Shown: positions 13,303 through 14,273 of the stretch, one piece after another
Layout of the letters: each line of letters begins with the position of its first letter
How positions within the stretch are numbered: position 1 is the first letter of the stretch
DNA from: Saccharolobus solfataricus
GTDB lineage: Archaea > Thermoproteota > Thermoprotei_A > Sulfolobales > Sulfolobaceae
Direction: 5' to 3'
DNA length: 32,000 bases
Assembly: GCF_900079115.1 (NCBI RefSeq)
Contig: NZ_LT549890.1
Location: 2,730,001 to 2,762,000, forward strand
Program-made: the position numbers and the translations under genes
The notes under the pieces: generated by a model
Database searches by the model: none
What the model saw: the letters and a program-made list of their open reading frames with translations, nothing else
Told to the model about the DNA's origin: nothing

Positions 13303-13662
13303 ATCTAAAATCATATTATTAAAAATAATAGTTTTCCGTTAGTAACTAATTATCGCATATTATATGGTTATTTTACTTAATTATATCAAAATTTATAGAA
13401 AATCTCAATGTTATAGTAATATTTTTTATAATTATTATCATAAAAAGTCTAAAATTTGTGAAACACCACTGGTTATTGGGTATGACATATATTAAAAATA
13501 ACATTAAATTCAGAGAAAGCTCATTTTATTTATATTATTAGATACATAAAATTGTATTTTGTGTTATCCATGATAAGTGTAATGGAATAAATTCTCGTAT
13601 ATTTAAAAATATAATATAATAATCTCAGCTGACTTAATATTTTTAGAAAGATTTTAAGTCAA

Positions 13663-13769
13663 CCGAATGGGGCGGAGAAGGATGAACGGAGCAGTCCGTG
13701 ACTTTGGTGAAGCCCAAGGGCTGAGGATTGATATTAAATATCATGAAATCCTATGAAGCTTAAACCCCT
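13663..13769 (+). ncRNA. Orphan TnpB 3' end / omega-RNA scaffold relic (no adjacent tnpB)
   Basis: ~90% identical to 6205-6313. Hairpin ACGGA-GCAG-TCCGT replaces ACGGG-TTTC-CCCGT (compensatory G:C to A:T). Other differences fall in loops. Homology ends 4 nt before the dcd-like stop codon. Confidence 0.65.
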
Positions 13770-13772
13770 AAA

Positions 13773-14273
13773 CTAAATTGGTATACCTCCCTGATACTTG
13801 CCACTATAGATTCTTTCAGTTCTCTGATCTAATTCTAAAAATATTAAATGATGAGTGCTAATTCCCTTAGCTAAAGAAGAATTATAGACAGAAGTTATAG
13901 CTAAGTAAATCTTTCCCTTATATCCGGCATCAATAACAGTAGGAGGAGCCAGAAAACCATTCCTAGCCATAGTACTTTTTAAGGTTATTAACACCGCTAA
14001 GTTCTCTGGCATGTTAAACTCCTCACATGATTCGAATAGGTAAGTCTTAAGGGGCGATAGATCAGCTACCTCTTTAAAGGGTATTTCCCTAATTTTAGCC
14101 TTTATAGCAGGTAATTGTGCACCTTCCTCAACTACATAATATTTATCTCCACATATTCTCAAATCATACCCATTTTCTCTGACGTTTTCCTCAACGTAGT
14201 TTATTATCACTTTACCTAATAATTTTTTAATTGACTGATGAGAGAGAATCATTTCAGAGAATAGGTTTGACAT
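13773..14273 (-). CDS. dcd: dCTP deaminase / dUTPase superfamily protein
   Basis: [40 protein letters not shown]. The start may be the internal MILSHQ Met (14252). Confidence 0.8.

Follow-up and report, generated by a model that had tools for sequence, protein, structure and literature searches.

Sequence comparison identified, beside the 3′ end of a dcd-like gene of Saccharolobus (Sulfolobus) solfataricus P2, the right end of an ISC1904/ISC1913-type element of the IS607 family, truncated and solo (hereafter the relic), which with a probability of roughly three in four is a remnant in decay that serves no dedicated function. It gave no indication of an independent function, covered the guide-RNA (ωRNA) region of its parent element in part only, and is probably a fifth, shorter member of the RNA-257 class described in P2. 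The window, that is, the whole stretch of 32,000 nt that was analysed, corresponds to P2 genome AE006641.1 (genome coordinate = window position + 2685092), in which the dcd-like protein is encoded at 2698865-2699365. Features discussed below are listed in Table 1.

Table 1. Features at and around the relic, in window positions
Feature	Position	Strand	Evidence or remark
Full-length IS607-family element, reference copy for the relic	4400-6312	+	1913 bp
orfA (serine recombinase) of the full-length element	4464-5048		Pfam Resolvase and HTH_17
tnpB of the full-length element	5026-6300		Pfam OrfB_IS605 and Cas12f1-like_TNB
Conserved hypothetical gene	12721-13302	+	193 aa; C-terminal residues altered by the insertion
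P2-lineage-specific segment	13264-13772		Alignment to related strains; 509 bp in place of 11 nt
AT-rich, non-IS part of the insertion	13264-13662		~400 bp; 21.5% GC
Imperfect inverted repeat abutting the relic	13625-13666		Arms 13625-13644 and 13647-13666; 16/20 nt; 2-nt loop
Relic (solo right end; ISC1904/ISC1913-type, IS607 family)	13663-13768	+	BLASTN, alignment, covariance model
Variable hairpin ACGGA-GCAG-TCCGT	13686-13699	+	In the length-variable stem-loop of the family
Would-be guide, if the relic were transcribed as ωRNA	13769-13788	+	Antisense to the dcd-like stop codon (13773-13775) and last codons
dcd-like gene (dCTP deaminase-like)	13773-14273	-	Pfam PF22769, E 1.2e-18

The relic comprised the last 35 codons of tnpB, the stop codon and a 10-nt terminal tail, corresponding to the 3′ ~105 nt of the ωRNA scaffold. 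In BLASTN, 13666-13768 matched 6210-6312, the last 103 bp of the full-length element, with 89.3% identity (E value of 4.8e-34), and the two shared an identical 35-mer core, for which 0 matches were expected from shuffled sequences; a BLASTN search of the whole window revealed no further ISC1904 fragment. The preliminary description had reported a copy of the last ~107 bp at 13663-13769; the copy was real, but its BLASTN extent was the 103 bp given here. Homology ended with ...AAACCCC at 13768, the right end common in the alignment to about 20 related Sulfolobales elements, and the terminus read ...GAAGCTTAAACCCC, as is required of an IS607-family right end at its junction with host DNA (...GAAGCCCAAACCCC). 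The tnpB reading frame and the original stop codon were both retained, the translation ending in MGRRRMNGAVRDFGEAQGLRIDIKYHEIL. As had been noted before, the relic stopped 4 nt short of the dcd-like stop codon and had no tnpB near it, the closest one being that of the full-length element, 7.4 kb away.

IS607 elements are recognised by a serine-recombinase TnpA, usually accompanied by TnpB, and the full-length copy possessed both. The closest relatives of its TnpB were S. solfataricus proteins annotated as "Second ORF in transposon ISC1904" (92-95% identity), and inspection of the sequence revealed the D/E/D motifs of the RuvC domain and the zinc-finger cysteines. The left end, GCCGTTGCCAACAGTTTCCG..., was common to loci L039, L016, L020 and L026, and the ωRNA scaffold was located at 6148-6312 with 188.9 bits by the covariance model R1. 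At the relic, by comparison, there was no orfA and no tnpB beyond the last 35 codons, and the left-end motif GCCGTTGCCAACAGTTTCCGATAAACCGTAAAG..., present in eight related loci (L014, L016, L019, L020, L023, L026, L027 and L033), was absent from the upstream sequence as searched with BLASTN and by comparison of IS similarity with shuffles. Because it has no left end, the relic is immobile and not excisable; it cannot transpose, be mobilised or be excised, and it has no donor joint to home to. It likewise differs from MITE/PATE-like elements, in which both ends surround a short non-coding interior.

Alignment to related strains placed the relic in a segment specific to the P2 lineage. P2 12674-13263 and 13773-15523 aligned to positions 3004-3591 and 3603-5322 of locus L034 from S. 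solfataricus CP033235, and likewise to the S. islandicus locus L036; between the aligned blocks P2 had 509 bp and the relatives 11 nt, and IS-derived sequence was confined to the final 103-105 bp of the P2 segment. In CP033235 and in three S. islandicus genomes (L036-L038), the same two genes converged with an overlap of 4 bp (...CTCAGCTAGATTGG...), while the P2-like strain CP050869 (L041) was identical to P2 across the whole region. The preliminary description had proposed comparing orthologous loci for an empty site or a full IS, and it was the empty site, with no full IS, that was found. The insertion changed the end of the 193-aa hypothetical protein, of which close relatives occur in S. 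islandicus and in 98/2-type strains of S. solfataricus, from SVLS to NDKEKTNLAPSR; the C-terminus and stop codon of the dcd-like gene were unaltered, the proteins of P2 and of related strains both ending in ...YQGGIPI. The AT-rich ~400 bp shared no IS similarity beyond that of shuffles and had no plasmid, virus or IMG/VR matches, and the 509-bp insertion as a whole was without terminal inverted repeats and not MITE-like.

Two minor observations concern the same segment. Logan contigs from more than 20 samples broke off at 13500, which hints that the relic may lie within a larger repeated unit. The hexamers CTAGAT and CTAAAT could represent a 6-bp target duplication around 13304-13772, but IS607 elements generate no target duplications and the match is short.

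These comparisons suggest a simple history. In the P2 lineage only, an element would have entered where two convergent genes meet that overlap in related strains, placing its right terminus at a distance of 4 nt from the stop codon of the dcd-like gene; some 95% of its length, orfA and the left end included, would later have been lost or replaced, so that 103-105 bp are left beside ~400 bp of unrelated AT-rich DNA. Molecular effects of the relic, if any, would arise as RNA-level by-products. Probably the 3′ UTR of the dcd-like gene runs antisense through the relic; it would then carry ~100 nt complementary to all ISC1904 tnpB 3′ ends, ωRNAs and RNA-257 RNAs, as at SSO1183. Transcribed from the plus strand, the relic would yield an RNA of the RNA-257 type that is antisense to the dcd 3′ end.

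The ωRNA (reRNA) of TnpB was reportedly described in 2021 (Karvelis; Altae-Tran) for IS200/IS605 and IS607 elements. That of IS607 TnpB has been treated in a preprint (Zedaveinyte et al. 2023). The relic resembles such an RNA in position: it spans the tnpB 3′ end and the right end, stops at the transposon boundary and is followed directly by flanking sequence in the place of a guide. It differs in holding only the 3′ two-thirds of a scaffold whose fold is known here from sequence. For the family, a conserved non-coding module of ~165 nt, from AAGATGTGCGG to the right end, was observed; it was retained whole in five protein-less elements with left and right ends and in most solo copies in other genera. 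Fourteen scaffolds were aligned together with the relic, and seven helices were specified by hand. In this fold 89.5% of the cells were paired, against 34-57% when the 3′ partners were slid by 1-3 columns, and the covariation score was 0.155 versus 0.109 in shuffles (reached by 0 of 500), with the caveat that the 21-mer used to find the loci was invariant by construction. At the base of helix 1, which was kept, one pair changed from A-U to C-G, while the apical part was swapped wholesale between two types; the inner 3′ hairpin occurred in two versions, GATAT-TAA-ATATT and GGAT-ACAA-ATTC. Thus, the covariation that the preliminary description had suggested looking for was real at the family level, and it supports a fold of about 165 nt for the ωRNA. 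An RNAalifold consensus on the MAFFT alignment mis-registered helix 1, the apical part of which is length-variable, and was set aside in favour of the hand-specified structure.

Measured against this fold, the relic was incomplete. Roughly 105 of the ~165 scaffold positions were covered, with helices 4-7 intact; the first ~60 nt were gone, and with them helix 1 and, of the closing helix 2, the 5′ strand, whereas a complete scaffold has helices 1-7. It had been claimed that the relic was exactly the part expected to form the ωRNA scaffold, but the 5′ third is absent. With model R1, built without the relic, complete scaffolds scored 120-190 bits, the relic 96, and the clearly truncated solo copies L011 and L016 73-79. 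No Rfam family was found across the window at the gathering threshold, matches in 13300-13900 at E values up to 10 being at chance level, and a search for tRNA genes found none.

The preliminary description had also compared the hairpins ACGGG-TTTC-CCCGT (6230-6243) and ACGGA-GCAG-TCCGT, and the inner loops TGA and TAA, of the full copy and the relic; these letters and positions were correct, but the conclusion drawn from them, that RNA structure was being preserved in the relic, did not hold against the wider family. At the pair concerned (alignment positions 93-101), ten sequences had GC and one, the relic, AU. The corresponding region of TnpB C-termini was variable (NGAMPRD, NGFPRD, NGS- or N--VRD) and the hairpin was deleted (MN-VRD) in nine of the ten S. 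solfataricus TnpB clusters; being length-variable and so often deleted, it is dispensable and little constrained. The loop A (TAA) and CCT were the majority states, found in every other type-A sequence and in the full-length S. solfataricus copy L039. In protein form they read ...IDIKYHEIL at the C-terminus of P0003-P0005 and P0009, and the unusual one is the full copy in the window, with ...IDIEYHEIP. L039 (AACG------TCCGCGAC) and L021 (GTCCCGT, with a G·U pair there) shared with the relic the T in the 3′ arm of the hairpin; therefore, the relic and the full copy of the window belong to different sublineages, and the contrast between G:C and A:T, as read from these alignments, is one between two sublineages and not between ancestor and descendant. 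Paralogue 3′ ends in this comparison were deduced from TnpB C-termini, the DNA used being that of one further S. solfataricus copy, P0003 (L039).

All 11 differences between the relic and the full copy of the window were structure-neutral: seven fell in loops or unpaired positions, two made up the double change from G:C to A:T, and two gave G·U pairs. The CC-to-TT change of the relic retained G·U pairs, and relic-specific changes were few, none of them breaking a helix. Such neutrality is to be expected if the differences arose at a time when the sequence was part of a working element, in which it encoded both the TnpB C-terminus and the guide RNA; the intact tnpB frame and stop codon fit a divergence that predated truncation. 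Judged in this way, the differences are lineage differences from the working-element stage and give no evidence of selection on the relic; weak continuing constraint may still act, the statistical power being very low. The exact hairpin variant of the relic, AACGGAGCAGTCCGT, was found in no full copy, the search covering 120 TnpB C-termini and JGI metagenomes; L040, the lone metagenome match to it, was an unrelated chance match. The preliminary description had expected of a simple deletion remnant both an identical full copy elsewhere and a full IS at this site in relatives. This expectation was borne out by half at most: the site was empty rather than occupied in the relatives, and the identical full copy was not found; a deletion remnant of a related IS copy, the third of the options it had listed, is nevertheless what the evidence supports.

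P2 possesses 11 ISC1904 copies and, in addition, four intergenic solo ISC1904 3′-end paralogues, RNA-257 1-4, all of which are transcribed (Märtens et al. 2013, PMC3674436). These RNAs become less abundant under phosphate limitation, have a box A and an inverted repeat upstream, and were read by the authors as remnants of transposon rearrangements (PMC3674436). The relic shares with them (RNA-257, RNA-107, RNA-91, RNA-20) their genome, the ISC1904 parent and the intergenic solo state in tnpB sense, which are the properties by which the class is recognised, and RNA-257 1, according to its primer sequences, likewise extends past the right end into the flank (GCCCAAACCCACTAAGTAAG). Differences were also observed. 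No match, at up to 4 mismatches, was found in the relic to the probes for RNA-257 1, 2/4 and 3 or to the primers for RNA-257 1; for RNA-257 1, 2 and 4, the sites of probes and primers lie 145-310 nt before the right end, outside the relic. With 103-105 nt, the relic is far shorter than RNA-257 1, 2 and 4, which reach 250-310 nt upstream of the right end, and its upstream sequence is non-IS, whereas their promoter is IS-derived. Most likely the relic and the RNA-257 1-4 loci are the same kind of object.

A second precedent is SSO1183, on the 3′ end of which an ISC1904 right end (ORF1182) converges; antisense destabilisation of this gene has been shown, as has regulation in trans of a reporter with an SSO1183-type 3′ UTR (Märtens et al. 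2013, PMC3674436). The dcd-like gene presents the same geometry, a host gene 3′ end met by an ISC1904 right end that is complementary to all ISC1904 3′-end RNAs, and both arrangements were found in S. solfataricus only and are missing from related species. At SSO1183, however, the element is complete and the last 90 nt of the gene are altered, whereas 103 bp are left at the relic, the dcd-like coding sequence is untouched and the changed C-terminus belongs to the opposite neighbour.

The sequence directly upstream of the relic is that in which a promoter would lie. The 8-bp hairpin and TATA-like sequence reported there previously were present, but both are to be expected by chance at 21.5% GC: an 8-bp inverted repeat such as the core at 13630-13637/13654-13661 occurred in 379 of 500 shuffles of this stretch, and hexamers like TTAATA and TTTTTA (13634-13645, beginning at 13634 and 13640) were frequent in it. 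The longer, 20-nt form of the repeat, which appeared in the minimum-free-energy fold, was mildly unusual only (reached by 5 of 200 shuffles). On the minus strand, no run of five or more T residues occurred from the dcd-like stop codon to about 13614, and the dcd-like 3′ UTR thus probably contains the complement of the relic and of the hairpin.

Among the alternatives to a decaying remnant, a passive role as an antisense target deserves some attention and is doubtful as an account of the relic. In this reading, the dcd-like mRNA would end at a T-rich run past the inverted repeat (minus strand, ~13600-13620), and its 3′ UTR would be bound by tnpB mRNA 3′ ends, ωRNAs and RNA-257 1-4 and the mRNA thereby destabilised. 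The geometry of SSO1183, the reporter trans-regulated through such a 3′ UTR, the lack of an oligo-T run before ~13614 and the 89-94% complementarity of the relic to full copies all point this way; any such effect, however, would count as a by-product, not as a function that the relic serves, and where the dcd-like mRNA ends is deduced from sequence. That the relic is instead a fifth RNA-257-type sRNA gene, with a promoter in the AT-rich spacer, is unlikely. The hexamers at 13634 and 13640 would put transcription start near 13665, and the plus-strand RNA from there would base-pair in cis with the dcd-like mRNA 3′ end and in trans with the SSO1183 3′ UTR. Such a gene would have the transcribed, phosphate-dependent copies of the same genome, with their inverted repeat before box A, as models; at the relic, too, an inverted repeat and TATA-like hexamers lie ~25-30 nt upstream of the start of homology, and the SSO1183-complementary probe GAAATCCCATGAAGCCCAAAC matches with 3 mismatches. 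Apart from the chance-expected nature of these signals, the mismatch to every paralogue-specific probe and primer, the short length and the non-IS origin of the upstream sequence argue against it, and the supplements on P2 small RNAs (Xu et al. 2012; Märtens et al. 2015) contain no entry at the relic, that is, near 2698.6-2698.9 kb.

Readings that involve TnpB itself find less room. A domesticated, truncated ωRNA gene, its promoter having arisen in the AT-rich spacer and its guide being fixed on the stop codon of the dcd-like gene and the last codons before it, is very unlikely; TnpB made by the 11 ISC1904 copies would load its RNA in trans, without cutting for want of a TAM, or else the RNA would act as a cis-antisense RNA, and the RNA-257 sRNAs would then be orphan ωRNAs with TnpB. 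For a domesticated regulatory RNA, which the preliminary description had listed as an option, RNA-257 1-4 provide a published precedent in P2. Extremely improbable is an orphan ωRNA acting in trans, by which ISC1904 TnpB would be guided to DNA matching 13769-13788 and would either cut the empty allele (homing) or, in the manner of TldR, repress at the dcd 3′ end. A transcript of the relic would indeed consist of scaffold and then guide, as the relic ends at the transposon boundary; helices 4-7 are intact, and the TnpB of the window copy has both Pfam domains besides its catalytic and zinc-finger residues. Protein-less elements whose ωRNA needs TnpB in trans are known from IS200/IS605 (PATE-like; Meers et al. 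2023), and similar elements, consisting of left end, ωRNA and right end, occur in other Sulfolobales. The relic resembles these in having ωRNA-type sequence without an adjacent tnpB, but PATE-like elements, and with them the ISC1904-derived L014, L020, L026, L027 and L033, retain both ends and a complete ωRNA, whereas the relic has no left end, thus no excision and nothing to home back to, and has lost ~60 nt of 5′ scaffold. Its guide, orthologous to TCAGCTAGATTGGTATACC at the empty sites, had a single match in the window, the flank of the relic itself, and what precedes this flank is the right end, not a TAM; within the first 8 guide positions, the empty-site allele has 3 differences (TCAGCTAG versus TAAACTAA). 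SisTnpB1 (Xu et al. 2023) was rejected as a model, because its element is of the IS200/IS605 type, with a TTTAA TAM, and is not ISC1904.

As a decaying remnant, the relic alone matters little, ISC1904-derived solo 3′ ends having already been described in P2. The dcd-like gene, however, is, after SSO1183, a second host gene whose 3′ end faces a convergent ISC1904 right end, and it offers a ready test of whether antisense control by RNA-257/ISC1904 reaches beyond one gene. Additionally, the RNA-257 class coincides with the region now termed TnpB ωRNA. No paper linking the name RNA-257 to TnpB guide RNAs was found in the literature searched, and binding of RNA-257 RNAs by TnpB, if true, would join two separate literatures.

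The neighbourhood of the relic was dense in insertion sequences, with transposases of the IS630, IS110 and DUF772 types. P2 carries more than 200 insertion sequences together with their fragments, and solo 3′ ends derived from ISC1904 have been known and investigated there since 2005-2013.

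Of the genome-collection loci that contained the 21-mer core (L011 to L033), the majority were solo 3' ends lacking tnpB; a tnpB gene lay upstream only in L017, L028, and L032, and probably also in L018 and L030, both of which were cut by the end of the locus. Since most matches were without tnpB, solo modules of the ωRNA type are more numerous in these genomes than full elements of the ISC1904 type. Five of the loci (L014, L020, L026, L027, and L033) carried ISC1904-derived elements of about 230 to 290 bp that encoded no protein, in which the ISC1904 left end (GCCGTTGCCAACAGTTTCCGATAAACCGTAAAG...) was followed by a short GTCACACC/GGTGTGAC hairpin, a complete ωRNA scaffold of about 165 nt, and the right end. 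They look like IS607-family MITEs bearing the guide RNA only, and their hosts were Metallosphaera yellowstonensis, an Acidianus hospitalis MAG, Stygiolobus sp., and Sulfolobaceae RB850M. Three further loci (L016, L019, and L023) held other internal-deletion derivatives that retained both ends. In addition, a stretch of 942 bp was shared at 94.6% identity by M. yellowstonensis (L012, nt 877–1817) and Stygiolobus sp. (L033, nt 4048–4985), beginning within the ωRNA scaffold and running on through the same guide flank, while the upstream sequences differed. This likeness could reflect a mobile region common to both, a recombination event inside helix 1, or assemblies that were cross-contaminated.

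The left-end junctions were compared for the full copy in the window (nt 4395–4405), the five protein-less elements, L016, and L039, a full-length ISC1904 copy of S. solfataricus. Nearly all ISC1904 left ends opened with GCC(GT), except that of L016 (GTC), and the right end closed with CCCC, so that position -3 distinguishes the left from the right junction. A Clostridium IS607 element has the same kind of self/non-self distinction, TGGG versus TCGG (Zedaveinyte et al. 2023, preprint). By analogy, the difference at -3 makes NGCC a candidate TAM for the ISC1904 TnpB. The empty target site in the 98/2-type strain CP033235, TCCGTTCTCAGC (L034, nt 3592–3606), was identical at 10 of 12 positions to the start of the L039 left end, GCCGTTATCAGC; targets resembling its own ends may be preferred by the serine transposase, or the likeness may be a matter of chance.

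A contig assembled from a single sequencing run (L003, Logan SRR29706757), equivalent to about nt 13,705–13,799 of the window, contained the relic with an identical flank and the GCTT end. At two positions, however, this relic carried the states of the full copy, G in the TGA loop and C in CCC. Such mixed states suggest that the relic has undergone gene conversion with full copies or that strains are polymorphic here. Contigs L042, which alone represents 18 samples, L043, and L044, together assembled from over 20 sequencing runs, stopped in common at nt 13,500, about 165 nt upstream of the start of the IS-derived part. Beginning at about nt 13,471, the sequence may have further copies in the genome or be polymorphic.

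Sequences 80% to 92% identical to the relic were present as ISC1904-type 3' ends in several Sulfolobales virus genomes; those of SMV1 and the SSVs lay within regions annotated as 'hypothetical protein', not as transposase. The relic's own neighbourhood was dense in other transposase genes (nt 7860–10,992 and 15,910–18,409), and the gene order to the left of nt 12,674 was unlike that of the 98/2-type and S. islandicus loci. The P2 stretch around the relic is heavily rearranged.

Protein-less elements, ISC1904-type 3' ends in viruses and a plasmid, and transposase genes of the window
Feature	Sequence	Position (nt)	Strand	Source
Protein-less element	L014	~3330-3590	minus	
Protein-less element	L020	~2130-2391		
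Protein-less element	L026	~1900-2130		
Protein-less element	L027			
Protein-less element	L033	~3930-4170		
ISC1904-type 3' end	MK054236/MK054237			SSV, Norris Geyser Basin
ISC1904-type 3' end	KU645528			ATSV
ISC1904-type 3' end	HG322870			SMV1
ISC1904-type 3' end	NC_012624			plasmid
IS630-like transposase, DDE_3 + HTH	window	7860-8845		
IS110-like transposase	window	8905-9978		
DUF772 transposase	window	15910-16866		
IS630-like transposase, DDE_3 + HTH	window	17587-18409		

Two other repeats were observed in the window. Three tandem 60-nt repeats (nt 6750–6960; 100%, 100%, and 89% identity) fell within a gene (nt 6626–7351) coding for DUF3782 and PD-(D/E)XK nuclease domains. A 46-nt repeat including the palindrome CAGATCTG-CGTAATA-CAGATCTG occurred at nt 7367–7412 and 15,571–15,616, 8.2 kb apart, with 91% identity, and nt 15,570–15,710 matched a different place of the 98/2-type locus (L034, nt 1769–1909).
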